Positions 23,885 through 44,350 of a stretch of 64,000 nucleotides of DNA are shown piece after piece (within the stretch, counting starts at the first letter, position 1; each line of letters opens with the position of its first letter). Both the position numbers and the translations under genes were made by a program. The stretch is from Desulfurococcales archaeon. GTDB lineage: Archaea; Thermoproteota; Thermoprotei_A; Sulfolobales; Desulfurococcaceae. The notes beneath the pieces were generated by a model, which ran no database searches, was not told the origin of the DNA, and was given only the letters and a program-made list of their open reading frames with translations. The DNA lies in the NCBI GenBank assembly GCA_027022365.1, contig JALVYU010000026.1, forward strand, positions 224,001 to 288,000, read 5' to 3'.

Positions 23885-24502
23885 ATGCCTAGGGAGGTCA
23901 GGGTTCTCGCTGTCGAGGATAAGCCTTGGTGGATGCAGCCATTGTTCAGCTTCCCGTTTATAGGGGATCTAAGCGTCCGCCAACTCCTCATCTTGATGCT
24001 GTTTATTGTACCCGTAGTAGTACTAAGCATTACCGCTGGTCTAGGATTCATGGAGACCTTCGCTTTCTCATTGATAATGCTCTTCATAGGGCTCGGCATC
24101 GCTAAGAAACCAGTAAAATCGGTTCTCCCGGAAAAACAGCTTCTCGTCTTTCTAACCGGGAGGTATAAGCCTCGGGCCTTGGCCAGGAGTGCTGAGACGG
24201 TTGCCGAGAGAAGACATGTAGCAGGAGTTCCTGAAACAGTCGAAGTTGTAGCACGTGATTCTACCCGGATACCTACGGTCAAAATCGTGGGTGTCTTGAG
24301 GGATCCTCTCGGAAACCCCCTTGCGAACCAAGAGCTGGAAGTCCATGTTAACGGTAGGCTGCATACCCGGGTTAGAACAGGGTCTTCCGGCGAGTACGCA
24401 GTGTATTATACCCCGGATGGCCCGGGCCTATATGAGGTAGAGATCAGGCTTGGTGGTAGAACTATTCTCAGGAAAAGGGTTAGGGTGGGTGTGCGGGGTT
24501 GA
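23885..24502 (+). CDS. PrgI/VirB3-like membrane protein with C-terminal Ig-like beta domain
   Basis: GDLSVRQLLIL followed by two TM helices (PrgI-like), then GVLRDPLGNPL...RTGSSGEY; coupled to VirB4. Confidence 0.6.
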   Translation: MPREVRVLAVEDKPWWMQPLFSFPFIGDLSVRQLLILMLFIVPVVVLSITAGLGFMETFAFSLIMLFIGLGIAKKPVKSVLPEKQLLVFLTGRYKPRALARSAETVAERRHVAGVPETVEVVARDSTRIPTVKIVGVLRDPLGNPLANQELEVHVNGRLHTRVRTGSSGEYAVYYTPDGPGLYEVEIRLGGRTILRKRVRVGVRG

Positions 24503-26328
24503 AGAGGTATTATTACCAGGTTTACCCGGTGAACTATTCTCTGCTCCACGAGGACGAGCAGATCAGTATTATCGAGGGCTTCAAGGATCTCCTAAACCAG
24601 GTGAGGGGGGACCTGATAATAACCTGTAGGAGGGAGGTTAAGGAAATACGCTGGGAGGATCGCGTGTTCGAAGCCGACCTCTACAGCTTCTATATAGAGT
24701 CTTTGGAGCGTATCGATGAGTTGTTAGAGGTTTCAGGCCTGCTCTACCAGCCTCTCCTGAACCCGCCTCCGAGCCTCCTCGATCCCGGCCGGGCCCTGGT
24801 CAAGCCCAGATACATTATCCATGATGGGAGGATCTACCGTGTCCTATCGGCCTACAGGTTGCCTGCAACGCTTACAGAGGGCTTCTTGCAAGAGATCCTT
24901 CCACTGGTCGATGAAGCGAGGATCCTTGTAAAGCCCCTCCACAGACACTATGCTGTCAGAATGCTTCAGCATAGATACAGGTTTCTAAGAGCCCTCATGG
25001 CCAGCTACCAGTATGAGGGTAGGCCACCCGACTTACACATCGAAGAGGAATATACCGTCCTCGAGGAGCTTCTTCAATCGCTTGTTAGGAGGGAGACCAG
25101 TCTATTCGGTATTAGATTCGTATTGGTAGTAAGTGGTGGTTCTCGTGAGGAGGCTAGGGCTAGAGCAGAGTATGTAAAACGTGAATTGGAATCTATGGGT
25201 TTTGACGTTGACAGCCCGGCTTTTCTACAGTGGCTTATGTATGAGCTAAAAGAACCTAACCCTATTTACACTGATACTCATACCTTGGGAGCTTTCTTCC
25301 CATTCATATCTAACACGCTTATGGAGACCGACGAGGTATTCCTCGGGCTGTCTAGGATCGATAAGAGCCCGGTGTTCTACGATATCTACATCCATACAAA
25401 CTATAACCTGGTGGTTCTAGGTATTCCGGGCGCCGGTAAATCGGTTACCGGCAAAGTACTCATATACAGGTATTATAGGAGGTATGGAGAGGACATCGAC
25501 TTCTACGTTATAGATCCTGAGAACGAGTACCGACCCCTTCTACATCAGTCAGGGGGGCAGGTCATAGAGGTCAAGCCCGGGGAACCCCTAGGCCTCGACC
25601 CGTTAAAGCTACTACCGAAAAGCGATGCCGTCGACGTAGTCTCTACACTAGCTAATATTCCAGGGCATCTATACGGAGAGTTAGCCAGCCTTGTAAAGAA
25701 ACATGAAAGTATATGGAGCCTTTACGGAGAAGCTTCCGATGAACTTAGAAAATATCTGAAAGGACTACTCGAGGGACCCGAGTCATTTGTTTTCCAGGGA
25801 GAACCGGTTGAATTGGGCAACCGTGTCGGTATATTGCTTCGCGGTGTTGAGAGCGAGAAGCTCAAAAACATTATATCACTCCTAGTATTCGCTAGGATCT
25901 GGAGGAACATTGAGGAAGCCCCAAGATCGAGGAGAAAAGTTGTTGTCGTCGATGAGGCCTGGCTCCTCCTAAAGAACCCTAATGCTGCTAGGTGGATGGA
26001 GGCTATTTCTAGGAGAGGCCGTAAACGCAATGTTGCATTCATATTTCTTACCCAGCAACCACAGGATGTTCTACGCAACCCGGTTGGTAGCCTCATAGTC
26101 AGGAATGCTGCTTCTAAGCTCCTCCTTATGCAGGATATTAATGCCATCGATGCGGTCTCTAAAGAGTTCAAGCTGAGCGAGGCCGAGAAGCAGGAGCTTC
26201 TCCGGGCTCAGCCAGGCGAGGGGATCCTTATCACGGAGAACACTAGGCTCTCGCTTAGGATCACCCTCTCGAAGAAGGAGTATAGGCTCTTCACTACCAG
26301 GCCTACAGAGGTCGAAGAGGCGGCCTAG
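24499..26328 (+). CDS. VirB4/TraC-like ATPase
   Basis: VYPVNYSLL N-terminus, Walker A GIPGAGKS, IDPENEY, Walker B VVVVDEAW, RGRKRN...LTQ, GEGILI. Confidence 0.88.
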   Translation: MKRYYYQVYPVNYSLLHEDEQISIIEGFKDLLNQVRGDLIITCRREVKEIRWEDRVFEADLYSFYIESLERIDELLEVSGLLYQPLLNPPPSLLDPGRALVKPRYIIHDGRIYRVLSAYRLPATLTEGFLQEILPLVDEARILVKPLHRHYAVRMLQHRYRFLRALMASYQYEGRPPDLHIEEEYTVLEELLQSLVRRETSLFGIRFVLVVSGGSREEARARAEYVKRELESMGFDVDSPAFLQWLMYELKEPNPIYTDTHTLGAFFPFISNTLMETDEVFLGLSRIDKSPVFYDIYIHTNYNLVVLGIPGAGKSVTGKVLIYRYYRRYGEDIDFYVIDPENEYRPLLHQSGGQVIEVKPGEPLGLDPLKLLPKSDAVDVVSTLANIPGHLYGELASLVKKHESIWSLYGEASDELRKYLKGLLEGPESFVFQGEPVELGNRVGILLRGVESEKLKNIISLLVFARIWRNIEEAPRSRRKVVVVDEAWLLLKNPNAARWMEAISRRGRKRNVAFIFLTQQPQDVLRNPVGSLIVRNAASKLLLMQDINAIDAVSKEFKLSEAEKQELLRAQPGEGILITENTRLSLRITLSKKEYRLFTTRPTEVEEAA

Positions 26329-26329
26329 A

Positions 26330-27925
26330 TTGAAGAAGATCAGGCTCCCCTTCAAGATTAAACTATTGTTTTCCCCACGGGAGAGGAGACAGCAGATCGT
26401 GGGGGCTGGCCCGCGTCTTATCAGCTATCATGCTAGTGCATATGTTACCTCTGGCGAGATTATCAAGGTCTACAATACTGGTTATGAGAACATGGCCACG
26501 GTCTACATCGTAGATGAGGGCGGTAGGGGACTATACATTGTTGATGAGCCCAGGGTGCCGGAGGAAGTCAAGAATGTCTATGGCCTCATAATGGAGCATC
26601 TGAGCTACTCCCTGAAGCCGGCCCAGGTTTCTAATATTGAGGACTATGTGAAGAACCTGGTGTGGGAGGCGGCTGAGGAGCTCGGAGTCGTAGATATTGT
26701 AGAGCAACACATCAAGACCCTGAACTACTATATTATGAGGGATGTCATAGGCTATGGCTATATTGATGTCCCTATGAGGGATCCCCTTGTTGAAGAGATC
26801 AGTATGGAGGGGCCGGGTGTACCAGTAGCTATTGTTCACCGCGATGTCTCTAACTATACGTGGCTGGACACAAACATTGTTATACCGAGCGAGGAGGAAG
26901 CGGCTGTATTTGTCCAGAAACTGGCCCAGAAGTGTGGTAAGTATATATCGACGGCTTTCCCGATCCTAGAGGCCCGTTCCCCGGAAGGTCATAGAATAGC
27001 CTTGGCTCTAGGCGAGGTATCTGGCCGGGGCTCCAGTTTCACGATTAGGAAGTTCCCTGAGAAGCCCCTCACGATTACTCAGCTCATAGATTATGGAACC
27101 CTATCCCCCCTCATGGCGGCTTATTTCTGGATCCTCCTCGAAAACCTAGCGTTTATCCTAATAATAGGAGGGATGGCTACAGGGAAGACCACTACACTTC
27201 AAGCCCTTCTAACTTTAGGTCCACCAGACTACAAGTACGTTACGATCGAGGACACGCCAGAACTAAGGCTTCCTCATACCCACTGGGATCCATTGTATAC
27301 CAGGAAAGGCTATACAATAGGATCCTCACAACTCGACATAGACCTCTTTGAGTTAACAAAATTCTCGCTAAGGAGGAGAGGCCAATATATTGTGGTAGGC
27401 GAGGTCCGTGGAAAGGAGATCCAGTCCCTGGTCCAGGCTGCGGCTACTGGCCAGGGGTCTATGTGTACTTTTCATGCTAACTCTATCGAGGAGGCTTTCT
27501 TGAGGATTACTAGCCCCCCGCTCGATGTTAAGCCAGCCTTCCTCATGCTGATATGGAGTATAGTCCTTATGAGGCGTGTAAGACTGAAGGACGGCCGTGT
27601 TGTCCGGAGAATGGCTAAGGTATGGGAAATAACCGGGCTAGATCTAGAATCAAACAAACCAATACCCCTAAACTATACGGAGGTATTCTCTTGGGATCCG
27701 TTCACGGACTCCTTCAAACCAGATACACCCGAGGAAGTTATCAGTAGGAGCTATAGGTTGAAGCAAGTAGCTAAAGCCAGCGGCTTAGCATCGAATGAGC
27801 TTCTGGAAGAGATAAGAATAAGGGCTAGGTATCTTGAGGAGATGGTGAAGGATAAGGTATTCGATTACAATGATGTATCCAAGAGATTGTTTAAATATTA
27901 TAAGAGTAAGATAAAAAAGAATTAG
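26330..27925 (+). CDS. Type II/IV secretion (type IV pilus) ATPase, FlaI/TadA-like
   Basis: GYG.ID..M.DP.VEEIS, FTIRKFPE.P, GGMATGKTT, TIEDTPEL, IVVGEVRG, TFHA. Confidence 0.93.
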   Translation: MKKIRLPFKIKLLFSPRERRQQIVGAGPRLISYHASAYVTSGEIIKVYNTGYENMATVYIVDEGGRGLYIVDEPRVPEEVKNVYGLIMEHLSYSLKPAQVSNIEDYVKNLVWEAAEELGVVDIVEQHIKTLNYYIMRDVIGYGYIDVPMRDPLVEEISMEGPGVPVAIVHRDVSNYTWLDTNIVIPSEEEAAVFVQKLAQKCGKYISTAFPILEARSPEGHRIALALGEVSGRGSSFTIRKFPEKPLTITQLIDYGTLSPLMAAYFWILLENLAFILIIGGMATGKTTTLQALLTLGPPDYKYVTIEDTPELRLPHTHWDPLYTRKGYTIGSSQLDIDLFELTKFSLRRRGQYIVVGEVRGKEIQSLVQAAATGQGSMCTFHANSIEEAFLRITSPPLDVKPAFLMLIWSIVLMRRVRLKDGRVVRRMAKVWEITGLDLESNKPIPLNYTEVFSWDPFTDSFKPDTPEEVISRSYRLKQVAKASGLASNELLEEIRIRARYLEEMVKDKVFDYNDVSKRLFKYYKSKIKKN

Positions 27926-28021
27926 CTATCTTTATTTATAATTTGTTATAATTTATATTGTTATAAAGGAAAAGTATTCTCAGATATGTATGTTTATTAA
28001 AAAGTGCTTGTTTAGAGATTT

Positions 28022-30328
28022 TTAAGATAGCTGTGGGGCTGTTACATGAATATTTATTTCACAACTTAGATAGTCTCCGACATCTTTATCGTAATTTATA
28101 TTCATATATGAGTCACTTGATGTTGCCAGATAGTTCCATTCTATATAGAATGATGCATGTGCTTCATTGACGCGTGTTCCACTACCTGAATAGTAGAATC
28201 TTATCGGTATATCGAGGCTGTTACTGCCAGTATCCATAGTACTCGGGTCAAGTGAATACAGTATTTTATCCGCGATACTAGCGCTTACTCCAATGACTGT
28301 AACTGCGGCTTCAAACACTGTTTCATATGGTATAGGAACTATAAGATCAGCTACAAATAGTATTGTCGAAGCCGCATTGGCGTAATCTTCGATTGCTACC
28401 GCTATGGATCTAGCTTGTGATATTTTCCTGTGAACATCGCTTGTTACATCGTTTTGGTTCATATCATTAGCATATACAACGTTGAAGTCTTTATACCCAA
28501 ATCCTGGCTGACCCTCATTGGGATTATTTGTGCCGACCTTTGCATTGATCTCCATCTTGCTGATCTTATAGTAGTTGCTTGTCGGATGATAGGGGGCTAA
28601 GCAAACAGATTCTTGACAGTACTGGTACCATACTTCCTTAGTGTACCCGAGATATAGACGTATTGTAGCATATTCTAAGTTTTTATTCCAATAGATATCG
28701 TAAATTCCTAGGTAGCCATGGTTGTTTATCCACCAATATCTCTCCTCACCGAATTCCCAGTTATAATACGCTACGGCTTTTGTTCCGTCGAATTCATGTT
28801 CGATATAAAAGTCGACTCTGCTTACATAAGCTTTTATGGGTGGAGGCGTTGGACCATAGTCGTAACATTCAAACTCGATCTTAAGCATGATTGATTCGGC
28901 ATCGCTCGGTATTTCAACGTAGTCTGCTATTTGATGATACTTGCCATCGCTGAGATCGATCCATGGTCCGTATGTGGTGGTAGCGGGGTCTCCTTCAACT
29001 TTATAATAGCCCTCTATTTCTAATAGTATATAACCATTATTGTTACGATGACGTAATTTATCCATTATTTTAAATGCTAAATCAAGTGAGCTACCATTTT
29101 TAATAACGATCTCTTGATCTTTATCGATTAAAGCTTGTAGTACGTTTAATTTTTCTGTACCATCCGAGAGAACCGCTTCGGCGAATTTAAGAGGCTCTAA
29201 TTGTTTCTTTTTAATTTCCTTAACATTATTTGAATCGGCTAGTGCTATGTAATTGATTTTATGAAAGCCCGTTGAGACTATCTTGATCGCTATGTCTCTA
29301 CTATTATGCAGGGGCGTTGCTGATAGATCTATTGCCTCAAGATACCAATTATGCCTAGGCTCTATCGTGGCTATTTTTATCCACTTCCCATTAGAATAAC
29401 CATATATTATTAATGATGTTTTATACAGAACATCCGTACCAAGTAGTAGTAACTTGGGCTTGTGCCCCAGTCTCGGAAAAATAACAGTATATGTATCATT
29501 AGGCCTTGTCGTGATGTAGCCTATGTTCATAAACCATACCTTGAATGCAAAGTTATTACCATATTTATCCAGTACCTTGATTGGTCTGACAAGTCTATTT
29601 TTGTCTTTTATAATAAAGACTTTGCCTGTACTGCTCTCAGAGACAACTATGTCCCCCTTAGTCTTTGTTATATAGTATGCTTTAATATTGTAAATATGGT
29701 CTTCTTCTCCATCTCTTTCTATGATTCTAAATTTAATCTTATTTTCATTTATACTGAATTGACTGGGATAGATCAAGTAATAATCCTTCTTCACCTCAGT
29801 ACCTTTAGCCAGTGGAAGCAGGTTATTGATATATACATATTTTCCATCGATAAAGCTATATAATCGGGGGCAACCACCTCCAGAAGAACCCGTGGATACC
29901 GTTACGGCTATTCTGGCTCTAATCTTCCCGGAAGATGGTTGTTCTGCTCTAACATATGCGTAAAAGAGTACTTTCTCGCTCTTCACAGAGTTTATATGTG
30001 TATTATCAGAGTACTGATATATGGATGCATAACCATTCGTAGAATAAAGGTACAGTGCATAATCTCCTCTAATACCCTTGCCATATGCTCTGCTATAACT
30101 GTCAGCTATAATGTTCCAATAACTAGGATCTCCTTCATGATCGAAAGTTAGACCCTTGAATAATTCACCTACATTATAGTACTTGCTAGGTATTGTAAAA
30201 TCATAGTTATACGGCCCTTCTACTAATGTAGTGGATTCAGCGTGCACTGTCGGAATATAGGCTGGTATAATGACAATAGATAATGTAATGAATATTGCGA
30301 GAAAGGGGATACCTGTCTTCCCCCTCAT
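28022..30328 (-). CDS. Large secreted multidomain protein (CBM-like fold split by an inserted domain; hydrophobic C-terminal helices)
   Basis: Signal peptide ending VHA; 768-aa ORF. Confidence 0.7.
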   Translation of the reverse strand: MRGKTGIPFLAIFITLSIVIIPAYIPTVHAESTTLVEGPYNYDFTIPSKYYNVGELFKGLTFDHEGDPSYWNIIADSYSRAYGKGIRGDYALYLYSTNGYASIYQYSDNTHINSVKSEKVLFYAYVRAEQPSSGKIRARIAVTVSTGSSGGGCPRLYSFIDGKYVYINNLLPLAKGTEVKKDYYLIYPSQFSINENKIKFRIIERDGEEDHIYNIKAYYITKTKGDIVVSESSTGKVFIIKDKNRLVRPIKVLDKYGNNFAFKVWFMNIGYITTRPNDTYTVIFPRLGHKPKLLLLGTDVLYKTSLIIYGYSNGKWIKIATIEPRHNWYLEAIDLSATPLHNSRDIAIKIVSTGFHKINYIALADSNNVKEIKKKQLEPLKFAEAVLSDGTEKLNVLQALIDKDQEIVIKNGSSLDLAFKIMDKLRHRNNNGYILLEIEGYYKVEGDPATTTYGPWIDLSDGKYHQIADYVEIPSDAESIMLKIEFECYDYGPTPPPIKAYVSRVDFYIEHEFDGTKAVAYYNWEFGEERYWWINNHGYLGIYDIYWNKNLEYATIRLYLGYTKEVWYQYCQESVCLAPYHPTSNYYKISKMEINAKVGTNNPNEGQPGFGYKDFNVVYANDMNQNDVTSDVHRKISQARSIAVAIEDYANAASTILFVADLIVPIPYETVFEAAVTVIGVSASIADKILYSLDPSTMDTGSNSLDIPIRFYYSGSGTRVNEAHASFYIEWNYLATSSDSYMNINYDKDVGDYLSCEINIHVTAPQLS

Positions 30329-30463
30329 ACTCAGGCACCATAGTTTTCTTCACCTAGGGAAATAAATATATCTTATATAAAATGATCATCTAATGTCATG
30401 GAGGTAACATTTATATAAACGTTTCTTTTTCGTGTATTATCGTTAGGAGTTGTTGGTTTTGAA

Positions 30464-31570
30464 GTGGTTGCAATGCTTCTCAGGAAGTGGATGAAGCTGT
30501 TGTTTATTATTGTTATTGTTGTTGGTTTTGCTCTCTACACTTTCTTCTTCCTCACGTATTACAGATACTATCCTGGGGTATCGGGTAATAACGAGATCAT
30601 AGTTAGCATAGGGAGCGTTAAGAAAGCAGAGGATGTAGTAGAGAGGATACTCGATAAATATTGGGGTAAGGTTGATAAGCTTTGGATCTACAAGACGAAT
30701 ATTTACTGGAGCAGAAAAGACATACAGATCGAATATGATAGTTATCCCCTGAACTACTCGTATGAGTTCCGGGTTTTTATTCTCCGAAAAATACTCGGCC
30801 AGATCGAGGCGAGAACGGAGCTTTATTTTAGGGCGCCTCATCATCCGTGGGATAATGTTACATGGATACAATATGACCGGGTCCACAACAGGCTACTGAT
30901 ATACCATAACGGTATTTTCTCAGGAGATGAGCCATCGGGAGCTGGCAATGTTAATGCACTCTTCTACCTCGATAAGAATAGGTTCGTGATAATCAATCTC
31001 GTACCAGCAGAATACTGCATACCGAACGGAACCAGCCTAACCACCTTCAAATACAACGGAACATATATAAAGCTCCCCAGCCCCTGTAGCCCTAGAGATC
31101 GCGAACATCTAAGATTCTGGTACATTTATTTCGTCCCACCATACATTCACACCTTTACCGAGCCCTATGATGAAGAACTAGCCCCAGTATATATAGCAAA
31201 TATTGTCGTGATAACACATAATATGACGGATAAAGTCTTCATGGACAAGAACTTCAGAGAATATCTTGGGGAATTGAGGCGGCTTAGAGATGAATGGATC
31301 AAGAGGTTCAATGATACTGGGTTCACGGCATTACGGGATGAACATGGAAAAGTGGCCGAACTAGACTTCGACTCGAGAGAAATCCCGCAAACACTGGAAA
31401 ACACGAGGTTCTTCAAGGAGTTCGAGGAAAACCTCACAGATATCCTCTGGCACACGCTCATAAAACCCATCCTACAATACATACATGTCCACGCAAACAG
31501 CCTATGGGACATAATGTTCGCACTACTAATAAACAAGCATGAAGCAATATACCTAGAACCTCTAACGTGA
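30464..31570 (+). CDS. N-terminally membrane-anchored hypothetical protein
   Basis: KLLFIIVIVVGFALYTFFFL anchor; 368 aa. Confidence 0.7.
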   Translation: MVAMLLRKWMKLLFIIVIVVGFALYTFFFLTYYRYYPGVSGNNEIIVSIGSVKKAEDVVERILDKYWGKVDKLWIYKTNIYWSRKDIQIEYDSYPLNYSYEFRVFILRKILGQIEARTELYFRAPHHPWDNVTWIQYDRVHNRLLIYHNGIFSGDEPSGAGNVNALFYLDKNRFVIINLVPAEYCIPNGTSLTTFKYNGTYIKLPSPCSPRDREHLRFWYIYFVPPYIHTFTEPYDEELAPVYIANIVVITHNMTDKVFMDKNFREYLGELRRLRDEWIKRFNDTGFTALRDEHGKVAELDFDSREIPQTLENTRFFKEFEENLTDILWHTLIKPILQYIHVHANSLWDIMFALLINKHEAIYLEPLT

Positions 31571-31955
31571 TAGAAATAAATTAATTAGGAATTTTGATCC
31601 GATAAAAGTGAAGTAGCCTTAGGAGGGGCTGACGCGGCCTCACGCCTCTAGCACGGGTATTTGGCGACCTCCGGTGCACTCTAGTCATAACTATAAAAGA
31701 GGATCTAGCGATTCCGCTCATTTTGAGTAAAAATGATGGAGATTAGAAATTTAGTGAGCCATTTTAGCTGGGAAAGACTACTCTTTCTCCTTAGCATGAG
31801 TGTTAATTTCTATATGGACAATGTATGTATTCGGTTAAACATGTATCGAACATACTTCATATAAACAATTACGTAGAAAGGTTATCTATAGGTTGATAAA
31901 GCAAAGTTACTTATAAATAACAATGCTTGTACACCAAGTTTTTCTCTATATAGAA

Positions 31956-32342
31956 TTACATAAGCATAGGCTCTCTGAATTTGCCTATCTTTTCTAACAA
32001 TACTCTAACTGGTATGATCTCTAGAGTGTTGTCTCGGCCCACGACCAATACCAAGTCGCCTTTCTTGATATCCAGCGATTTAGCGAAAGCCTTGGGTATA
32101 GAGTATACCGCACTTACGTTTGTTTTCCACACTTTAACTTTCTTCACATTCCACGCAGTCTTCTTAACTACACGTACAGCGTACTCTCTACCTATATTGC
32201 TATCGATAGGCACATAAAGAATCCTATCAATACCTAGAACAGCAAACACCTCCTCTCCAGCTGGTACTATGAAGTGTCTAGACGTTATATAGTACGATAC
32301 ATTACCCATAACTTTAAGTACTTTAATGTACATATGTACCAC
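31956..32342 (-). CDS. AbrB/MazE-type (probably tandem) DNA-binding protein
   Basis: YSIPKAFAKSLDIKKGDLVLV...LEIIP. Confidence 0.75.
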   Translation of the reverse strand: MVHMYIKVLKVMGNVSYYITSRHFIVPAGEEVFAVLGIDRILYVPIDSNIGREYAVRVVKKTAWNVKKVKVWKTNVSAVYSIPKAFAKSLDIKKGDLVLVVGRDNTLEIIPVRVLLEKIGKFREPMLM

Positions 32343-35826: not shown

Positions 35827-35909
35827 ATATCACTGTGATCCATTGTTACGGTTTGATAATAGTCTGTTCCTATGTCTATACGGTCCTTCTATATAATTCG
35901 GTGTTGCTA

Positions 35910-38205
35910 ATGGGCAGGATGTTATATGCTGTAATCTATATCGTCTTGATGATTTCTTCCAGCTTGTTATTTGTAGAAGCAACGCTCTTAACAGGGAGCT
36001 TATTATTTGCTGTTCCGTTAGCGGTTCTCAGTATGGCTTTACTGTTTGCGGATGTTATAATATGGTACAGATATATTCATCCCGTAGTCGTTAGGAATGT
36101 CGAGATGCTTATTGCCGTAGTATTTACATCTTTCATGCTCTTAATGATCCCGCTTCTTCTCGGATTCCTACATCTAGCCCCAGCTTTGGTGATGCAGGCT
36201 ACTCTCGCTTCCACGGGCCTTATAGATGGTTGGAGCCGTGTAAGGGGTTTAATCTCTAGGTCTAGGCGAACAGCTGTTAGGAGAATCCGGGAGAAGAAAG
36301 GCTGGAGCAGGTCTGTTCCCAGGGAGCTGGAGATATTTGTTTATATAGACTTGTTTACGGCAATGCTCTTCATACCATCTATACTTCTCGGGTTCTACCT
36401 CTTGGTAACGGGTGTTGACATACTTGTATCCAGCCTGGGCTTTGCCCTAGTCATGTATGGTTTAGCGGGGATGGGGTTTCATGTAGCTAACCTGCTGAAA
36501 CCCCCCGTGGAGGTTAGGATTCGTGTCTTGAGGAGGAAGTGGTATACTGCTTTCTTGGTCAGGCATCCGAGGATCTATTCTTTCGCTGAAAAGTACACGG
36601 GCTATATTAAGCGTCTCCTCGTTGAAGCCGGGGTGTTTCAGGGATCCCTCGTATTTGCTTCTAGGTATTTTGTCCCGGCTTTGTTAATGCTTGTTTCGCT
36701 GGGCCCGCTAGGTGTGGTTGCTCCTCTGCTACTGGGTAGGCTTGGTTTCATAGTCCTGGGTATAGTGTTTTCTGTTCCAGCGATCCTCCTATTGTTCCCC
36801 ATCATGTACTTGTCCTCGAGGAGGGGTGATAGGAGGCGTAGGGTTGAGGATGAGCTTCCCTGGTTCGCCCTATACGCTAGTATTATGCAGAGTGCTGGGT
36901 TGAGCCTATACGAGTCCTTTAAGAGGCTGATAGGTAAGGGGATCCTCCCGGCTATAGAGAGTGAAGCAACTATTATTGAGCGTAATGTTAAGATGCTCGG
37001 TATGGATCAGGTGAACGCTATTGAGGCTCTGGCTAGGCGTCATCCCTCTAGGAGGTTCAGCGAATTCCTATACTCGTACACAACCATATTGAGGACCGGT
37101 GGGGACCTGGTATCGTATCTTGAGGGCAGGGTTAGAGAGTACTTGGAGCTTCTCAAGTTCAGGCTTAAACGATATGCTGAGAGATCGGTTGATTTAGGCG
37201 AGATACTCATAACAATGTTCTTTATATTGACGAGCATTGTTGTTTCACTGGTTATTGCTGCCTGGGGATATAGCCCTTACAGCTATTAGGATGTATAACT
37301 ATCTCGCGATACCGCTGATCACGATCGTGCTTTACTCGGTAATTAATTCTATTCAGCCGAGGCTCTATGACAGGTATAGGGTCAGCCATGCTCTGCCAGC
37401 CATTACAACTCCTCTTGCAACCCTCATAGCCGTGGTCTCGGGCTGGGACCCGTCCTTGATCATTGCATCGTTCGTGATAGGGCTGGCTGGCGGTTATGGG
37501 TTCCAGTACTATATGCAGCAGAAAGTCATCTCTGCTCAGGAGAGGGCGTTGCAAGATTTTCTCCGGGATGTTGCCGAGTACCGGAAGATCGGGTTGCCGG
37601 TCTCTAGAGCTATTGTCTCTATTGCTGAGAGGAGGAGCTATAACTCGTTCTTCGATGACTTGCTCTCCTATATCGCTTTCCAGCTAAGGATGCATAAGAG
37701 GCTGGGAGAGGTAGTAGTGCCTACGAGCTCCCGGCTCGTCAGAACGGTGTTCTTCATATTGGGCGAGATAGAGGCTAGTGGTGGGGGTACGATTAGGGTT
37801 CTCGAGGAGCTTGTGAACTTTGTCCAGGAGTATAATATTGCGAAGAACGAGATGCGGGGAATGCTCCGCCTCTACGAGCTCCTAGCCTACACTACCCCGG
37901 TAATGCTGGTATTAACAGTTTCACTTGTAACAGGGCTCAGCACAGGATTCCAAGCCCCCGCGTCCTCGGCTTTCTCGAGCCTCCCAGGCTTCAGCCTCAG
38001 TATAGGGCGTTTCGACAAAGCAGTCCTAAGCAAAATAAGGACATCGACCCTGCTAGCCTCGATATCCCTAGCAGTCCTTACCAGCAAGACCATAGATTTC
38101 ACCGTGAAGAACACGCTCCGAGCAGTAATAGTCATAGTGATAACCATTGCCTCGTTCAGCTTCCTGCAACCATTAGCCGAGGAGATTATCAAGACGCTAG
38201 TCTAG
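35910..38205 (+). pseudogene. TadC/T2SSF-type pilus platform protein with extra N-terminal TM region, frameshifted near 37255
   Basis: Two T2SSF-like repeats (VEDELPWF...SAGLSL; FLRDVAEYRKIGLP...ASGG) split over overlapping ORFs 35835-37289 and 37237-38205. Confidence 0.75.
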
Positions 38206-38557
38206 CGGGTATAGTTTAAACACGTTATCCCTTACATGTACGAGCATGAATTTTGGTGGGTTTCCTTTTGGGCCATGGATTATATTCTTTTTCTCTGAAG
38301 TAGTGTTTAAAGAACTCGTGCCTGAGCTCTGAGCATTTTCTCCAGAATGAATCCGTTATCTCCACGCTTATACGGTACTTATCCTCAATGATTAGCTCGA
38401 CGTAGCTCCAGGTTCTGCTGAACAACGTGTCTCTATCGGGCTTTCTTATCCTGATCCCGTATGTGAACCTCTTCCAGTCACGGTTTTCCCTTCGTGCTCC
38501 GCCTTTCCACGCTGTAGCTATAATATAGTCGTTCATAGGCCTGCCCCGCTCATTCAC
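38200..38557 (-). pseudogene. Conserved hypothetical protein with probable +1 frameshift near the C-terminus
   Basis: TAW.GG...YGIRI...DRD..F...W...SFW.KC.ELR; removing one A from the AAAA run near 38268 gives PWPKGNPPKFMLVHVRDNVFKLYPLD*. Confidence 0.5.
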
Positions 38558-38731
38558 TTGCTATGTGGGTCGTCGTTAATAAGGAAATGGAGGGGGTACT
38601 GCTATGCTTGTGTAGAGGATCCGATCATTAACGGATATGCTGGCTAGACCCATGTTGAAGGAAAAATGCAACGTGTGTTCATTGATAAGTAACTATGTTT
38701 TTGTGTCTATTCTTTCCTAGTGGTGATGGTA

Positions 38732-39167
38732 ATGAAGGCGATAAGCCCTGTAGTGGCGACTATACTGATAATTGGGATAACCATTGCGGCCGTAGCAGGT
38801 CTCTGGATGCTGGTGCAGAGAAATGCCAGGACGGGGAGCGTTGTGAAGCTCGACGTTGTGAGCATACAAGCCAATGCGGCCCCTGACGCGAAGAGCTGTG
38901 GCTTCGTCGTGACTCTGAGGAACTCTGGTAACGTACCTGTAACCGTGTCAAAGGTCGAGGTAAGCGTTGGCTCCGGGAACAACGTGATCAATACGACGCT
39001 GAGCCCCCGGAACGCCAGGATAAGCCCTGGTAGCACAGAGGACTTCACCGGCGAGGCCAGCAGCCAGAGCCCGGTCTTCACGGATGGCGCCATCCGTGAA
39101 GACCGGGCCGGACGGGGCTCAGCACACTATAATCCAGTACGCCACCATAAGGACATCCACGTTCTAG
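38732..39167 (+). pseudogene. Archaeal type IV pilin (class III signal peptide), probably frameshifted near 39095
   Basis: MKA/ISPVVATILIIGITIAA pilin N-terminus; alternative frame VKTGPDG...YATIRTSTF* ends just before a T-run. Confidence 0.7.
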
Positions 39168-39259
39168 CAGTAGCTTCCCATAAGGTATTTGGAAATACAA
39201 AACTGTTTTTTAGCCCTTCAACCACCCCCTCCGTCTCCATTATTCCTTAATCCGTAACT

Positions 39260-39586
39260 ATGTCCCCCTCCTCCCCTAATCGGTATCGGTGCAGCTGGAT
39301 GGACTGCGGACTGCTTAATGGTTGCATAGACTATGAGTTCCTCGGCAAACTAGTAGATGCGCTAGAGATCAAGCTTGTACCCTTCGCCGACAAGTGGTTA
39401 CTGATAGTAGTCATAGGCTACACGTTCTATGATGATATAGAGTCGACCATTAGAGCTGTGCAGAAGTTCCTGAAAGAAAATGGTGTAGAATCCAGACCCC
39501 GGGAAATAGCCCCCGACTTCTACAATGACCTACCTGTTCTCAGGCTCGTGTTCGAGATAAATGGGTTCGGCGGTGATAATGGTTGA
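39260..39586 (+). CDS. Hypothetical protein
   Basis: 108-aa ORF coupled to the next gene. Confidence 0.5.
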   Translation: MSPSSPNRYRCSWMDCGLLNGCIDYEFLGKLVDALEIKLVPFADKWLLIVVIGYTFYDDIESTIRAVQKFLKENGVESRPREIAPDFYNDLPVLRLVFEINGFGGDNG

Positions 39587-40893
39587 AGGTCTCCGTGTTT
39601 ATGATTCTTTTACTCTTCTTCTCATCGATATCATCGATATTGCTTTTATCCCCAGTTGAGGGTAGCGGAGATGCAGGGGCCTCCGCAAGTATTGGTGTAG
39701 AGACCCCTATACCCGGGAATAAAAGCTATCGGGGAGGCAATGTATCGCTAGCTCTAAGTATTTATAATGGATTAGATGAACCCGTAAACATTAGTGTTGA
39801 AACGTTCCTGGATCCGATGATTCTCTTATGGTCTAACTATACGGTGGAGAGCCTTGATCCCGGAGCCCGGGTCAGGTTTATGTGGTTGGTGAAGGTGCCT
39901 GAGGATATAGGCTTCGGCAACTATACTCTGGGCTTCAACATAACCTATGTACACGGATCTGAGATCAACAACGTGTATGAGGAGGCTTGGGTCGATGTTA
40001 TACCTAGAAACATTACTCTGCTAACGGCTGACCTATACCACAACGCTACCGGATACTATTTGGTGGTCTCGAACCCGCTAACTGATCCCGGACAGTATAT
40101 AGTAGAGAACGTGTCGATAACTATAGAACCATTTAATATAAGTGTGGTTCCACGGGAAGCCGTTATTAATGAACTCTACGCTACCAGCTCCTACACGATA
40201 CCCCTATCTATAAGCTTCAATGAATCGGATATCGGAGCATTAACGGTAAACATGACAACCCATGATGACGTTCACGGACTAGTGTATTTCAACTACACAT
40301 TCATAGTAGTTAATGCTACGGCTTACCTGGATCTCCGTGTAGTAAATGATTATGGTGAGCCGTTATCCGGAGCCGTTGTCAATATAGCTAATGGGGCCTA
40401 TCCTACAGATTCAAACGGCCATATAAGCCTGGTTCTACCCGTAGGGATCTATAATTATACAGTTGAGTATCAAGGACATAAGGCCTTAGGGAAGATAGTT
40501 CTCTATACGGGATATAATCAATACACTATAATAGTCGATCTAACACCACCTATAATATTGAGTGCAAGACAAGAAGGCTATGGTATTATGGTTAAAGCCT
40601 ACGATCCGGGAAGTAACTGTTCTGGCGTTTCATCGATTATATTCGTCCAGGGAGAAAAAGTTTGGAAATATATGTTCTCCGCGCAGAGAAACATATCATT
40701 GATGCTTTACCCGTCGTTAAAATCGGGAAGCGCAACTATAATCGTGTTTGACGCGCAAGGAAATAAAAACAGCACCACGATCCAGTATATTGAACCAGTA
40801 AAAACAGATATCATATTGGAAGTTATCATTGTCTTCTCAATAGTTTTCATAGCGTTGATTGCATTATTGCTTTTAACTTCAAACCATTGGTAA
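39583..40893 (+). CDS. Cell-surface protein with Ig-like beta domains and C-terminal TM anchor
   Basis: Signal peptide, many N-x-S/T sequons, GEPLSGA.V...TDSNG, DLTPP, C-terminal hydrophobic helix. Confidence 0.8.
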   Translation: MKVSVFMILLLFFSSISSILLLSPVEGSGDAGASASIGVETPIPGNKSYRGGNVSLALSIYNGLDEPVNISVETFLDPMILLWSNYTVESLDPGARVRFMWLVKVPEDIGFGNYTLGFNITYVHGSEINNVYEEAWVDVIPRNITLLTADLYHNATGYYLVVSNPLTDPGQYIVENVSITIEPFNISVVPREAVINELYATSSYTIPLSISFNESDIGALTVNMTTHDDVHGLVYFNYTFIVVNATAYLDLRVVNDYGEPLSGAVVNIANGAYPTDSNGHISLVLPVGIYNYTVEYQGHKALGKIVLYTGYNQYTIIVDLTPPIILSARQEGYGIMVKAYDPGSNCSGVSSIIFVQGEKVWKYMFSAQRNISLMLYPSLKSGSATIIVFDAQGNKNSTTIQYIEPVKTDIILEVIIVFSIVFIALIALLLLTSNHW

Positions 40894-41043: not shown

Positions 41044-41772
41044 TCATTCTATCTCCCATATCTTCAACCCGCATCCTTCGTAAGTATTCTGTCCGGGGCA
41101 CCTCCTAATTCTCGGCTCTATGGTGAGGAATGCTTTTTCGAAATCAAAACTTTGCCATCTATACTGTTTCGTAACTATGTATCTAGTCAGATATGCCACA
41201 TAGTCGGCTATCTGGATCGCTGGTTCTAAGTGGGAGTAGGAGAAGGTGATGTATGTTCTATATGTTGGATTTGCGAGTGCTTCTTCTATACCCTTCTCGA
41301 TATCATGTCTAATATTTGCATCTTCGCGTAGATTCTTTGAATCAAATATGATGAGCGCTATGTTTTCATCTGCTCTAGTCATATATAGTCTCTCGACAAG
41401 GAGTTTTAATGCATGTTTTCTTATACCTCGGGCCCTCTTCTTCGAAATCTCTACTCCTGGTCTTGATTTAACAACAGCTACAATATTTAGTACTATGTCA
41501 AGCCTTGAAACGAGTTCGGCGATTTCTTGAAATATCCTTGCCCTATCCCGCATGGGGAGTCTCCACGGAGAATTCCCCTTAACCAGATGCTTGGTATGGA
41601 CCTCATTAACCCGGATACCATATTGATTATTAATATGTGAGAGGAAACGCGAGAAACTACTATCAACTACACCAAGTTTATCCTCACAGACGGCGACAGA
41701 TGACAAAATATATGGGCCTTCATCGAGCTGAAGAGGATCACCCGACTCGTCAACAAATATTAATAGCGTCAA
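41044..41772 (-). CDS. DUF3800 family protein (RNase H-like fold)
   Basis: IFVDESGD N-terminus, E.H, IIFD, C-terminal IQIADYVAY. Confidence 0.85.
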   Translation of the reverse strand: MTLLIFVDESGDPLQLDEGPYILSSVAVCEDKLGVVDSSFSRFLSHINNQYGIRVNEVHTKHLVKGNSPWRLPMRDRARIFQEIAELVSRLDIVLNIVAVVKSRPGVEISKKRARGIRKHALKLLVERLYMTRADENIALIIFDSKNLREDANIRHDIEKGIEEALANPTYRTYITFSYSHLEPAIQIADYVAYLTRYIVTKQYRWQSFDFEKAFLTIEPRIRRCPGQNTYEGCGLKIWEIE

Positions 41773-41952
41773 CAGTCACCTACCCTGTGCTCCTTGTACA
41801 TACACTAAGCTATTTCGGATATATTTAACATCCACGTATGATATAAGCTTAAACCGTTTAGTAAAGAAATCTATCTCATAGATCTGCTTTCACAGTTCAT
41901 CAATGATATGTTCCTATGTGTTTGCTTCACTGTTTTTATCGGTGCATACTAT

Positions 41953-43104
41953 ATGAGGGGCCAGGCGGCTGTTATTGGTGTTGCCTTGTTCTTCATAGCC
42001 ATGATCATAATGGGGGCCGTGTTCCTCAGCCTAGTCTCCAAGACTGTGAAGCTGTTCATAGCCGAGGAAATGTCGCTAAAGTACCTGGAAAGAAGGGCCC
42101 AGGAGAGCTTAAAGATTGTATGGGGCTGGGATATGGTGTCGGCTACAGAGGGGTATCCCAAGCTTATCATAAATAATACTGGGTCAGTGCCGATACATAT
42201 TGTCCAGGTTAGGCTCAGTATAAGGGAGAAGGATCCAGACAGGCTCTCGTGGTCCAAGATAGTCCAGGGACCATGGATCATAGCCGAGGATAGGGATCTC
42301 CCTGTAGGAGGCTCACTAGTAATAAAGGCTAACCAGAAACTTAACAGGACACAAATAGAGTACTGGTACAAGAACAACATGACAAGAATACTAGAAGCAA
42401 GAATAGTGACAAGATACGGAAACGTATTCAGAACTGTATATGTCCCGAGACCTCCGAAGTCAGGTCTAAAACCGGGATACAACACGATATTATTCTACTG
42501 GTCTGCTCATGACTGGATGGATATAGAGAATAATGACTGGTGGCATGGAGACAGGCTGGGCTACTATAAGATGACTGCTCCGGATGGTGCTTGGAGCATT
42601 GACGGGGGCAATATCGAGATCCCCGAATGGACTACGGTCTCCTCGAAGACCATTAGCTTTGAGTTCATGGTTTATCTGCCGGGCACGGATAGTGACGGAT
42701 ATGTTTTGGGCAGTAAGAACTATCTCGTCCTGGCCGTAGAGTTTATTGATAAGGGCACGGGGCCCGCCTATCCCGCGACGGTCTACTATTCATGGTCCCT
42801 GATAATTACCGGTCTCGATGGTAGTAGCGTATACAGTGTCTCTACGGGAGAGATAGAAGACACAATATCTGTTCCTGACGGGGTTCCCCACACGGCGTGC
42901 TTCAAGCTGGAACCAGGCAACCCCAAGTTCATAGTATTCGACGACATCCATGTAGAGAAGTCTCTCGACAAAACACCTAAGAATATCGAGCCAGGCTGGT
43001 ACATCGTAGAGCTGAAAATAAGGCTCAGAGCAGAGGCCGGGGGATCCGCTACACTTGGCCTTAAAAGCGTATTCCTATACATAAGCAACAAGAATTTATG
43101 GTAA
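41953..43104 (+). CDS. Large pilin-like protein with class III signal peptide
   Basis: MRG/QAAVIGVALFF prepilin site; ERRAQESLKI, INNTGSVP..IV, VTRYGNVF archaeal pilin motifs; extra C-terminal domain. Confidence 0.75.
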   Translation: MRGQAAVIGVALFFIAMIIMGAVFLSLVSKTVKLFIAEEMSLKYLERRAQESLKIVWGWDMVSATEGYPKLIINNTGSVPIHIVQVRLSIREKDPDRLSWSKIVQGPWIIAEDRDLPVGGSLVIKANQKLNRTQIEYWYKNNMTRILEARIVTRYGNVFRTVYVPRPPKSGLKPGYNTILFYWSAHDWMDIENNDWWHGDRLGYYKMTAPDGAWSIDGGNIEIPEWTTVSSKTISFEFMVYLPGTDSDGYVLGSKNYLVLAVEFIDKGTGPAYPATVYYSWSLIITGLDGSSVYSVSTGEIEDTISVPDGVPHTACFKLEPGNPKFIVFDDIHVEKSLDKTPKNIEPGWYIVELKIRLRAEAGGSATLGLKSVFLYISNKNLW

Positions 43105-43107
43105 TTT

Positions 43108-44025
43108 TTACCAGAGGGGTCTTCCTATATCATATAGTTTTTTATAATATGGTGCAATTATATTCTCCACCTCAGAACATGGGTAGGGTTTAATTGGGAA
43201 TTCTGGCTCATAGCCTGCTGACAGTTCTGCCAGGTAGAATATGTGGTTTTTCCATGTGAAGTTAAAGCATCCTTTCAATCTAGGAGGGGGATTATCAATG
43301 GCTATTGCCACGTATGCGTGATCAGCTGGGAAACCATTTGCTGGGCAGGCTTTAGCTGTTATATAAGCCACCCATAAACCAGCGTCAGCCGCTAGCTCGA
43401 TAGCTAAGCCAGATTTAGTCATACAGTTTCCCTCGTCATATACTATTTCAAGAAGTGCATCGTATGATCGTGGTTCCCACTTGTAATGGATCTGTGAGGC
43501 TATACTTAATATCATTAGGGCTAGTCTGTACTCAGTGTAGTTTGACGGGTATTCTTCAACGTATTTTCTTAGTGTAGTAGCTATTGCCTTTATGATTGGT
43601 TCTGAACCCCATTCCGGCATGTTGTTAAGGTGTAGTTCTATTACGAATTCTGGAATAATTATTTCTAAGACAACATATCTATGAATTATGTCATCGTAAA
43701 AGTAGAACTTTCTAGTAATTGTTGAGGAGTTTGCATGGTCTATAATGCTTAGTAATTGCAATAAGTTGTATTTCCCTGTTACTAGCTTTCCCTCTCTAAC
43801 CATTCTATCAGAGTACAGTATGTAGTCTCGGTATATCCTTTTCCATTCTTCAATTGTTTTATTAACAACGAGTATTATTCTATTGTTCTGTGTTGTTGTG
43901 GTTTGGTTTTCTTCTTGTTCTCTCTGTTTCAGTTCTGCAACTATGTTTGTATACATTACGTGTACGAGGAGTATGAGCACTATGACGATTAATGCCGTAG
44001 CGGCCGCTTTATGTATTGTTCTCAT
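43108..44025 (-). CDS. Membrane-anchored transglutaminase-like (Cys-His-acid) protein
   Basis: N-terminal TM; EGNCMTKS, DHAYVAI, YLAE. Confidence 0.75.
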   Translation of the reverse strand: MRTIHKAAATALIVIVLILLVHVMYTNIVAELKQREQEENQTTTTQNNRIILVVNKTIEEWKRIYRDYILYSDRMVREGKLVTGKYNLLQLLSIIDHANSSTITRKFYFYDDIIHRYVVLEIIIPEFVIELHLNNMPEWGSEPIIKAIATTLRKYVEEYPSNYTEYRLALMILSIASQIHYKWEPRSYDALLEIVYDEGNCMTKSGLAIELAADAGLWVAYITAKACPANGFPADHAYVAIAIDNPPPRLKGCFNFTWKNHIFYLAELSAGYEPEFPIKPYPCSEVENIIAPYYKKLYDIGRPLW

Positions 44026-44350
44026 CTTCCCCCTCCTTGAAAGGCTCTATTATTATCTTGTCGCCGTCCCCGCGTATTTTTACCAGTTCATACTTATCCA
44101 GGCCGGTTTTCTCTGCTAGTTCCCAGGGTATGTTTACCCTGTACTGTCCCCGCCCTTTGGTCGGCTTCACGACGTAGTAGTCTATACGCTTGACCACCAG
44201 CTTATCGTCCTGGACCGTTACCAGGACCCGCTCTCCTTCTTTGAAGGGGGCTTTATCCTCACCAATATACAGTCTCAGCTTCCCCCTCCCCACATCCACT
44301 ACCCTGACCGGGCCCATGCCCCGTCTAAGCACAATCTTATCACTGGTCAT
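44009..44350 (-). CDS. Tandem AbrB/MazE-type DNA-binding protein
   Basis: FKEGERVLV....KLVVK and GQYRVNIPWELAEKTGL...KIIIEP; likely start MTSDKIV at 44350. Confidence 0.7.
   Translation of the reverse strand: MTSDKIVLRRGMGPVRVVDVGRGKLRLYIGEDKAPFKEGERVLVTVQDDKLVVKRIDYYVVKPTKGRGQYRVNIPWELAEKTGLDKYELVKIRGDGDKIIIEPFKEGEDENNT

Follow-up and report, generated by a model that had tools for sequence, protein, structure and literature searches.

Why should a gene for a VirB4-family secretion ATPase share an operon with a gene for a type IV pilus (T4P) ATPase, and why should other parts of a type IV secretion system (T4SS) be missing around it? The locus that raises these questions lies in a 64,000-nt stretch (the window) of contig C26 (JALVYU010000026.1) from a hydrothermal-vent archaeon of the order Desulfurococcales. 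An earlier reading of the letters alone, here called the sequence-only reading, proposed a DNA-transfer or contact-dependent export apparatus that uses a T4P and belongs to an integrated element, with no recognizable VirD4, VirB6 or relaxase. Follow-up in the rest of the genome (G000) and in related genomes makes it rather likely that the locus, an island at window 23678-48376 (island R, C26:247678-272376), carries part of the mating apparatus of an integrative and conjugative element (ICE) of about 56 kb, in which a T4SS would transfer DNA and a dedicated pilus would provide cell contact. Most of the parts that seemed to be missing lie in a second island of 33.7 kb on the same contig (island L, C26:77425-111127, covered by loci L128 and L131). 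The two islands are probably halves separated by an inversion, and the view afforded by a window of this size therefore looked incomplete.

A coupled operon of secretion and pilus genes

The island opens with three genes on the plus strand (23885-27925), encoding a PrgI-like membrane protein, a VirB4-like ATPase and a FlaI/TadA-type ATPase just as the sequence-only reading had described. The first stop overlaps the VirB4 start (TTGA, 24499-24502), the VirB4 stop and the pilus ATPase start are 1 nt apart (TAG-A-TTG, 26326-26332), and the three genes are translationally coupled. The VirB4-family ATPase (24499-26328, 609 aa), the only VirB4 of its genome, scores above cut-off for both PF19044 (E 1.2e-13) and PF12846 (E 1.6e-12), matches the solved VirB4 4ag5 (E 5.3e-24) and has Walker A (GIPGAGKS) and Walker B (VVVVDEAW) motifs. 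Its nearest bacterial matches, from Actinobacteria and Patescibacteria, show 25-33% identity. The third gene (26330-27925, 531 aa) encodes a pilus assembly ATPase of the archaeal FlaI/GspE type (PF00437, T2SSE, E 5.3e-26), with PDB matches to archaeal GspE (2oap, 1.2e-78), FlaI (4ii7, 7.1e-63) and CpaF (1.7e-33). VirB11 was considered for this protein and rejected, as it matches at only 4.4e-11 over ∼120 residues of the P-loop region and the full-length matches to GspE and FlaI are far better. Only four T2SSE loci occur in the 1.74-Mb genome, and this ATPase is ∼40% identical to the three other T4P-type ATPases. Both VirB4 and the pilus ATPase keep their nucleotide-binding motifs.

The leading gene (23885-24502, 205 aa) encodes a hydrophobic two-helix hairpin followed by a C-terminal immunoglobulin (Ig)-like domain (Pfam Filamin, E 1e-6). 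By sequence its assignment to PrgI is weak: Pfam gives TcpE at E 0.011 and PrgI (PF12666) at E 0.3, and three of eight members of the protein's family match PrgI, the best at E 1.7e-4 and all under the curated cut-off. The family is small, with 39 clusters among 5.8 billion proteins, none bearing a functional name. In the loci compared, its gene always lies directly upstream of VirB4, and a complex between the protein and the N-terminal domain of VirB4 is predicted with an ipSAE of 0.64 (runs 0.66, 0.64 and 0.61), the best control scoring 0.00; 116 of 157 solved complexes pass the mark used, as against 2 of 215 mismatched pairs. Contacts agree between runs by at least 69%, the partner pLDDT is at least 69, and the model places conserved residues 1-22 on VirB4 residues 7-265. 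This pass may perhaps reflect likeness to VirB3-VirB4 complexes that have already been solved and is not proof of binding. Upstream position and predicted VirB4 binding would suit a protein of the VirB3/PrgI type, so that the PrgI identity given in the sequence-only reading is favored by position, coupling and the predicted complex and disfavored by sequence matches below cut-off.

Beyond a block of cargo genes the pilus genes resume on the same strand, with the TadC-like protein, pilin, Ig-rich protein and large class III pilin all where they had been placed. The TadC/FlaJ-type platform protein (PF00482, T2SSF, E 8.6e-10) reads as two open reading frames (ORFs; 35835-37289 and 37237-38205, plus strand) because of one extra base at 37261, the frames differing across 37244-37294; with that base removed there is a single 789-aa ORF with no internal stop. 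TadC is one ORF of 655-837 aa in all four relatives, and the base is absent from contigs of all four other sequencing runs compared, which come from four studies. A functional two-gene split like that of bacterial TadB/TadC was also considered, as an ATG lies 1 nt past the first stop, but is now unlikely because none of those four runs has the extra base.

The next pilus gene (38720-39250, plus strand) encodes a 176-aa type IV pilin with a class III signal peptide (KAISPVVAT; PF07790 E 0.004, below cut-off). The pattern [KR][GA][IV]SP..[AT] is that of class III signal peptides, and it occurs with a hydrophobic helix in the window pilin and seven related pilins, for which Pfam Pilin_N stays below cut-off. 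The KAISPVVATILIIG motif of the window pilin is common to pilins of island L and of the related loci L107, L108, L110 and L111, and tblastn matches to the relatives' pilins range from 1e-8 to 1e-13. Near the 3′ end of this gene, two bases at 39204 are absent from some contigs in three of the four runs, and the C-terminus may therefore read differently in relatives. An Ig-rich surface protein follows (39583-40893, plus strand, 436 aa; CarboxypepD_reg 1.2e-4, NPCBM_assoc 6.9e-4), with a hydrophobic segment at each end corresponding to a signal peptide and a C-terminal membrane anchor, and with positional counterparts in L107 and L108. The row ends with a large pilin-like or archaellin-like protein (41908-43104, plus strand, 398 aa; Arch_flagellin E 0.0059, below cut-off). 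Its N-terminus is RGQAAVIGVALFFIAMIIMG, with the archaellin-like stretch RGQAAVIGVALFFIAM, and the true start is likely the internal MRGQ.

The second island

A Pfam scan and search of the window found no VirD4, VirB6 or VirB2, and no YdjM-like or VirB2-like gene or member of fam5, a family of ∼400-aa proteins that recurs in related loci. To that extent the absence of VirD4 and VirB6 from the sequence-only reading was correct. A fam5 profile finds a single copy in the genome, also on C26 but ∼120 kb upstream of the window, and it lies in island L together with VirD4, VirB2 and an integrase.

The VirD4 gene (L128:5511-7466) scores 29.6 bits for PF10412 (cut-off 20.5; E 4.4e-7) and 24.8 bits for TraG-D_C (cut-off 22; E 2.3e-5); the protein has Walker A and B motifs and a winged-helix tail and is read as a soluble coupling protein. 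A VirB2/TrbC pilin (L128:12482-12814) scores above cut-off for PF18895 (42.6 bits, cut-off 26.6; E 6.6e-11) and PF04956 (38.2 bits, cut-off 27.9; E 1.7e-9). Searched against PDB, it has no sequence match to solved pilins up to E 10, and its best overall hit (E 0.39) is not meaningful. At the far edge of the island is an intact tyrosine integrase (L131:1475-2623; PF00589 1e-22).

The fam5 protein (L128:9316-10533) is polytopic. Its profile has 146 matches among 1.84 billion representatives, and of 79 homologs scanned, six carry PF04610 (TrbL/VirB6) and one PF19590 (2.8e-19), no other family occurring in more than one. The top three structural matches to its model (VIA-align) are all TrwI/VirB6 of R388, with Z-scores of 9.6, 9.0 and 8.8 over 210-214 residues (root-mean-square deviation 4.8 Å) and the next unrelated chain about three units lower at 6.6, in a range where helical bundles reach Z ∼13 by chance. 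Compared with PDB sequences, the profile gives nothing meaningful (best E 0.42) and no link to a solved VirB6. Because homologs carry PF04610 or PF19590 and the top structural matches are TrwI/VirB6, fam5 is read with moderate confidence as VirB6-like.

Other genes of island L encode two class III pilins, a YdjM-like protein, a transglutaminase-like protein, a HEPN/MNT pair and a serine recombinase, with radical-SAM and MFS proteins as cargo. Neither island has a prepilin peptidase, and no PilT was seen in the element; a host prepilin peptidase candidate (C26:375671-376042) scores 21.8 bits, below the 26.5 cut-off. Also in island L, a TFIIB-type zinc-ribbon/helix-turn-helix regulator and a TATA-binding protein paralog lie side by side (L128:2053-3187), a pair that echoes the TFIIB genes reported in thaumarchaeal ICEs.

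Conservation of the linkage in relatives

Whether secretion and pilus genes belong together can be judged from their recurrence. An alignment scan with VirB4, taking one genome per species, placed eight archaeal loci among the best 80 matches. Of 301 genomes of the same order, 92 have a VirB4 match at E ≤1e-10, and only six, from five families and including G000 itself, fall in the tier of the window's VirB4; none of three congeners does. Many genomes of the order give weak matches over part of the sequence, and these may be CedB/TedB-type proteins. Twenty neighborhoods were compared, and those of the window's tier with enough contig are L107 (the same as L005), L109, L110 and L111.

In all five complete loci of the clade, no more than 10 kb separates VirB4 from a T2SSE ATPase. 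In these five and in two Methanomethylicia loci, where TadC also co-occurs as the sequence-only reading would predict, secretion and pilus genes are interleaved in one strand-coherent cluster. This linkage is more than chance. The cluster of L107, L109, L110 and L111 comprises the T2SSE ATPase, one-piece TadC, PrgI-like/Ig protein, VirB4, class III pilin and fam5. The PrgI-like/Ig protein is not called in L109, where tblastn gives a partial match only. A YdjM-like membrane protein is found in clusters of this tier and is absent from L107, and small VirB2-like proteins adjoin fam5 in L110 (PF18895 2.5e-5) and L111 (0.0083). The Ig-rich anchored protein occurs among relatives only in L107 and L108. 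Locus L108 has the PrgI-like protein, VirB4, pilin and Ig-rich protein, and its contig ends 2.3 kb beyond the PrgI-like gene. In the Methanomethylicia loci L002 and L004 the T2SSE ATPase, TadC, fam5-like, PrgI-like and VirB4 genes stand in a row, with VirD4 as well in L002. In a more distant tier of 15 loci, a T2SSE ATPase lies within 10 kb in six and a VirD4-like gene is present in six. At least one intact copy of the module resides in a complete, single-contig genome (G014).

In a quick maximum-likelihood tree of 44 VirB4 proteins, which does not resolve the deep nodes, the window falls in a clade of nine (SH-aLRT 98), whereas the VirB4s of pNOB8 and of the Thermococcus 33-3 plasmid belong to a separate clade of 18. 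When 15 linked ATPases are placed in a tree, they fall into four sub-groups that match those of their VirB4 partners, L109 being the one exception. The matching trees show co-inheritance and are not proof of physical coupling, and the related rows are not independent.

Two side observations concern the pilus ATPase. The closest relative, L001, is 92.6% identical in nucleotides to window 24961-27186 and has an intein at the ATPase P-loop (L001:2227-2761; PF14890 E 1.4e-16) that the window copy lacks; its contig is labeled as a Flavobacteriales metagenome-assembled genome and is therefore probably mis-binned. Another T2SSE ATPase of the host genome (G000:C11:160137-162455) is a 953-aa frame, and the break in its match at residues 370/371 points to an insert such as an intein.

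Integration sites and history of the element

In the congeneric genome G154, the sites of both islands are empty. Compared with G154, the order in G000 is flank A, island L, an inverted segment of 136.5 kb, island R and the aspartyl-tRNA synthetase (AspRS) gene. The left edge of island R, by the PrgI-like gene, bears a 15-bp attachment core, att1 (23663-23677; TCAGCCCTCACACGG on the minus strand), and a second copy lies at the junction of flank A and island L (C26:77410-77424), adjoining the integrase; the window copy is inverted relative to it. This 15-mer is single-copy at the empty site of G154, and its chance expectation in the window is 0.00. Repeat and empty site bear out the claim of an integrated element.

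A second repeat, att2, of 29 bp includes a tRNA gene 3′ end and adjoining bases. The window copy (46013-46041, minus strand) matches C26:111114-111142 in inverted orientation, with 3 of 29 letters different (93% by blastn). The latter runs into the 3′ end of a tRNA gene that contains an intron (C26:111138-111292; Rfam RF00005, 44.5 bits), the integration target of a second, relic element (Y; the first is X). This tRNA gene at the edge of island L (L128:16139-16293, minus strand, with an insert of ∼86 nt) was missed by ARAGORN and found by Rfam. Adjoining att2 in the window is a tyrosine integrase remnant of Y (45605-45758, minus strand); aligned in inverted orientation over 155 bp, it shows 79% identity with the 3′ portion of the intact gene (C26:78454-78606). 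The tRNA-side end of island L holds a chimeric remnant that joins the first part of a PrgI-like gene (79% identical to the window copy) to the last part of a TadC gene; this remnant shows 60% protein identity over 116 residues, and its deletion joint, 23970 to 37877, also occurs in one contig of run X2.

The simplest history to account for this arrangement is as follows. Element X would have entered at att1, with its integrase at one end and the PrgI-VirB4 genes at the other. The related element Y would then have inserted at the tRNA gene, facing the other way, and decayed. Finally, recombination of X with Y would have turned the intervening 136.5 kb around and left X in two halves. The inversion thus probably arose by recombination with a decayed relative in a tRNA gene. 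Island L would be the integrase half of X with a stump of Y, and the window would hold the PrgI-VirB4 half of X with the integrase stump of Y, such that 23678-46012 represents the distal half of the ∼56-kb ICE joined to relic Y. A candidate crossover point is a 305-bp tract, 98.4% identical and inverted between C26:108005-108309 and window 44378-44074 (blastn), which lies in an AbrB-like gene (44009-44425). Another inverted tract of 325 bp is 95% identical between C26:109471-109795 and window 38520-38196 (blastn) and holds a 110-aa ORF (38225-38557, minus strand).

Metagenomic contigs from other runs bear on the distribution of the element. In runs X3 and X6, contigs pass from window 23677 straight into flank A, and empty-site strains therefore coexist in those samples. 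Window 27.7-35.7 kb has near-zero cover in X2, X6 and X11 and is represented in X3 by one contig of 8131 nt; no contig joins across it.

Proposed function and rival explanations

The function proposed for the apparatus is drawn from its protein families, as are the division of labor, the direction of DNA transfer and any present activity of the machine. The T4SS core would comprise the VirB3/PrgI-like protein and VirB4 of the window and VirB2/TrbC, the VirB6/TrbL-like protein and VirD4 of the other half. VirD4 would recruit DNA, and the translocon that moves it across the membrane would consist of VirB4, its VirB3-like partner and the VirB6-like channel. The VirB2-like pilin may form a conduit, a role suggested because CedA1 and TedC pili have been shown to act as one (PMC9905601). 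The FlaI/GspE-type ATPase, TadC, class III pilins and Ig-rich anchored protein would build an archaeal T4P that finds and holds partner cells, as the R64 thin pilus does in IncI conjugation and Ups pili do in Ced exchange. Of the two functions named in the sequence-only reading, the presence of VirD4, a coupling protein, and of an integrase favors DNA transfer over protein export.

Several points weigh against a conjugative element of this kind. An integrase, att repeats and an empty site, as an ICE would have, are all present; a contiguous excisable unit is not, as the halves lie 136.5 kb apart with inverted att1 copies, and because it is split the element cannot excise as a unit in its own assembly, where it is probably immobilized. 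The inversion itself rests on one metagenome assembly, and at the 305-bp repeat the contig may be mis-joined or the population mixed. If the assembly is mis-joined there, X is an intact 56-kb element; VirD4, VirB2 and fam5 belong to the same element under either reading of the assembly. Which tract was the crossover also decides whether X or Y owns window 38.5-44.1 kb, with the pilin, Ig-rich protein, DUF3800 protein, large pilin and a 305-aa protein. Among the parts, the PrgI hits stay under the Pfam cut-off, TadC has a 1-base frame break in its own assembly, and the fam5 protein was modeled with low confidence (mean pLDDT 51.8), giving Foldseek E-values that are not significant (0.35) and Z-scores that helical bundles can reach by chance. 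Among the scanned ORFs of both islands, none reached the thresholds applied for a relaxase family, the sole trace being PF13814 at E 0.047 within the VirD4 tail. Finally, no PF00589 integrase lies near the module in four relatives (G014, G007, G127 and G176, two of them limited by a contig end), G014 and G007 having one PF00589 match each elsewhere in the genome, and the relatives' copies may therefore be immobilized or domesticated.

This last point, together with the frames of VirB4, the ATPase, pilins, VirB2, fam5 and VirD4 that remain open despite the split, would suit a domesticated or immobilized DNA exchange system of the Ced/Ted kind, by which the host swaps or imports chromosomal DNA while the pilus aggregates cells and the element itself is not transferred. 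Ced requires Ups pili for DNA exchange (PMC9905601, PMC11868833), and some Crenarchaeota without CedB and CedD carry VirB4 (PMC11868833). Such a system is nonetheless unlikely here. A host-conserved chromosomal locus without VirD4 is not what was found: VirD4 is present, whereas Ced and Ted are described without it in the text of PMC9905601 and PMC11868833; an integrase and att repeats flank the element; and VirB4 of this tier is missing from all three congeners, its patchy distribution over five families pointing to a mobile element rather than a conserved host system. It is more doubtful still that two independent systems lie together, with the pilus genes as adhesion or biofilm cargo that has no working tie to VirB4. 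Archaeal T4P loci are many and modular (PMC4858521), the order between the secretion and pilus gene sets varies among relatives, and the L109 ATPase belongs to another sub-clade than its VirB4. Against this stand the strand-coherent interleaving in the five clade loci and both Methanomethylicia loci, the single nucleotide between VirB4 stop and ATPase start in the window, and the ATPase tree that mirrors the VirB4 sub-clades in four groups.

Contact-dependent export of proteins or effectors instead of DNA would be in keeping with the failure to find a relaxase and with large secreted proteins that adjoin the machine genes (28022-30328, with similar ORFs in L001). Those proteins are not conserved among relatives, however, and the integrase, att sites, ParB and a VirD4 with a DNA-binding-type winged helix, as well as the fact that the nearest characterized VirB4s are those of conjugative plasmids, make export very improbable. 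A bolder version of the conjugative reading would make the FlaI-type ATPase and TadC an obligatory pilus platform of archaeal conjugation that replaces VirB11 and the outer scaffold and extrudes a filament carrying or flanking the DNA, with the VirB3-Ig protein bridging the motors. The odds are clearly against this version; if true, it would define a distinct class of mating-pair formation (MPF) in Thermoprotei, Methanomethylicia and Nitrososphaeria and supply, for the first time, a nearly complete inventory of parts for archaeal conjugation.

Relation to known systems

A T4SS with its own T4P in one mobile element, as favored here, has precedents, and the sequence-only reading went too far in treating the two as normally separate machines. 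Thaumarchaeal ICEs are reported to carry VirB4, VirD4, VirB6, VirB3, TadC, FlaI, PilT, prepilin peptidase and pilins together (Krupovic et al. 2019, PMC6563490), and the bacterial R64 (IncI) thin pilus and PAPI-1 island combine a T4SS with an element-encoded T4P for mating-pair formation (PMC12102498, PMC12857230). The locus, whose archaeal class and VirB4 clade are both different, adds a further case to a kind known only from sequence surveys and does not form a new category. In the literature searched, the only relevant survey of archaeal elements combining conjugation VirB4 with TadC is PMC6563490, whose supplements may already include comparable loci. The main texts of Makarova 2014 (PMC4158269) and Makarova 2016 (PMC4858521) do not mention a locus link between VirB4 and T4P, VirB4 appearing once, in the reference list, in the former and nowhere in the latter, and their supplementary tables may list such loci.

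Similarities to thaumarchaeal ICEs (PMC6563490; Abby et al. 2018, PMC5797428) include the parts list, with ParB and TFIIB-type regulators, integration at att repeats that often lie in tRNA genes, the absence of a detected relaxase and the fact that these ICEs are known from sequence only. They differ in host class and VirB4 clade, the Nitrosopumilus locus L007 falling outside the clade of the window. Secretion and pilus genes here form one compact, conserved cluster, whereas the conserved genes of thaumarchaeal ICEs are described as not syntenic (PMC6563490); the VirB3-like protein here has an Ig-like domain, unlike theirs, and their PilT and prepilin peptidase were not seen in this element.

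Conjugation has been demonstrated experimentally for pNOB8-type Sulfolobus plasmids and Thermococcus pT33-3 (PMC12857230). These share VirB4 and VirD4 with the element described here, their VirB4s being 26-29% identical over 98% of the length, and have no detected relaxase, a gap also reported for other archaeal conjugative elements (PMC6563490, PMC12857230). Neither of the two records has a T2SSE ATPase above cut-off. Only VirB4-like and VirD4-like parts are described as recognizable in them (PMC12857230), whereas VirB2, VirB3-like and VirB6-like parts are found here as well. That review, from 2025, describes archaeal T4SSs as VirB4 and VirD4 only and T4SS-T4P hybrids as an emerging theme. 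The Ced system of Sulfolobales with Ups pili and the Ted system of Thermoproteales resemble the element in having VirB4-like, VirB6-like and VirB2-like parts and a T4P that aggregates cells (PMC9905601, PMC11868833). Ced and Ups are described as separate, lineage-conserved chromosomal loci, in contrast to one mobile cluster with integrase and VirD4, and CedB and CedD are described as HerA-clade proteins and halves of a VirB4 N-terminal domain, in contrast to a full VirB4 with a VirB3-like partner.

R64 and PAPI-1 belong to another domain of life with an unrelated envelope, and their pilus genes are of type IVb, as opposed to the archaeal FlaI, TadC and class III pilin genes seen here. In monoderm MPF-FATA systems (PrgI/PrgJ of pCF10, TcpE of pCW3) and the T4SS of Patescibacteria, a PrgI/TcpE-type gene also lies just upstream of VirB4. 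Compared with MPF-FATA, no PrgK/VirB1-type hydrolase or VirB8-like protein was recognized here, VirB2-type and type IV pilins are present, and the PrgI-like protein carries a fused Ig-like domain.

The mechanism of archaeal conjugation is little known, and in the proven cases, pNOB8 and pT33-3, only VirB4 and VirD4 are recognizable. The module family described here offers a fuller set in one cluster, with VirB2, VirB3-like, VirB4, VirB6-like and VirD4 parts and a dedicated T4P, and its recurrence in more than one archaeal class makes it a promising subject for studies of how an archaeal mating apparatus is built. VirB3 homologs are stated to be absent from archaea, with VirB4 in some Crenarchaeota (PMC11868833); the PrgI-like family argues, to the contrary, for a VirB3-like partner of VirB4 in archaea. 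The locus also illustrates how an element may come to be split when it recombines with a decayed relative, and its intact relatives offer testable copies of the module.

Cargo, neighboring genes and flanks

Between the pilus ATPase and TadC lies a low-GC, variable cargo block (28022-35317) with a GC fraction of 0.386, as against 0.47-0.49 in the flanking machine genes. Across both islands, machine genes have 0.47-0.49 and cargo 0.37-0.39, the genome-wide value being 0.453. The block encodes a 768-aa secreted protein, a 368-aa membrane protein, an AbrB-like protein, a ParB+DUF488 protein identified by Pfam, a Zn-ribbon protein and proteins of 296 and 173 aa, and it has no homolog in the related loci compared. 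The ParB+DUF488 protein (32560-33612) matches the PADLOC candidate defense model PDC-M19A (E 3.9e-20), and the 296-aa protein two genes downstream (33893-34783) matches PDC-M19B (E 2.4e-41). By these matches the two are a candidate defense pair carried as cargo inside the transfer operon.

Within the row of pilus genes, a 108-aa ORF (39260-39586, plus strand) has no family in a Pfam scan, and a DUF3800 protein (41044-41772, minus strand, 242 aa; PF12686 8.6e-12) is encoded between the Ig-rich protein and the large pilin; its homolog at L108:3896-4624 is 55% identical, and the gene adjoins pilus genes in both loci. The convergent gene that the sequence-only reading called transglutaminase-like does exist (43108-44025, minus strand) and encodes a membrane-anchored protein of 305 aa; the family name is possible as a lead only, since its nearest Atlas clusters are Transglut_core (score 0.90) and it has no Pfam match. 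BLAST finds no similarity between it and the transglutaminase-like protein of island L. On the same strand follow the AbrB/SpoVT-like gene that holds the 305-bp tract (PF04014 1.1e-4) and fragments of a broken ResIII/DEAD helicase gene (44340-45551; Helicase_C 2.3e-11 at 44340-45101, ResIII 6.5e-9 at 45108-45551).

Outside the machine, between att2 and the AspRS gene, a stretch of low GC (46042-48376, minus strand, 0.364) encodes two secreted proteins of 466 and 164 aa for which no family was found. This stretch is absent from G154, which has 311 unaligned bp in its place. The flanks are ordinary chromosome, with isochorismatase and ABC transporter genes on the left and AspRS on the right. Farther to the right, a tRNA-Val gene (50792-50887) is predicted at 96 nt and, being longer than usual, probably holds an intron.

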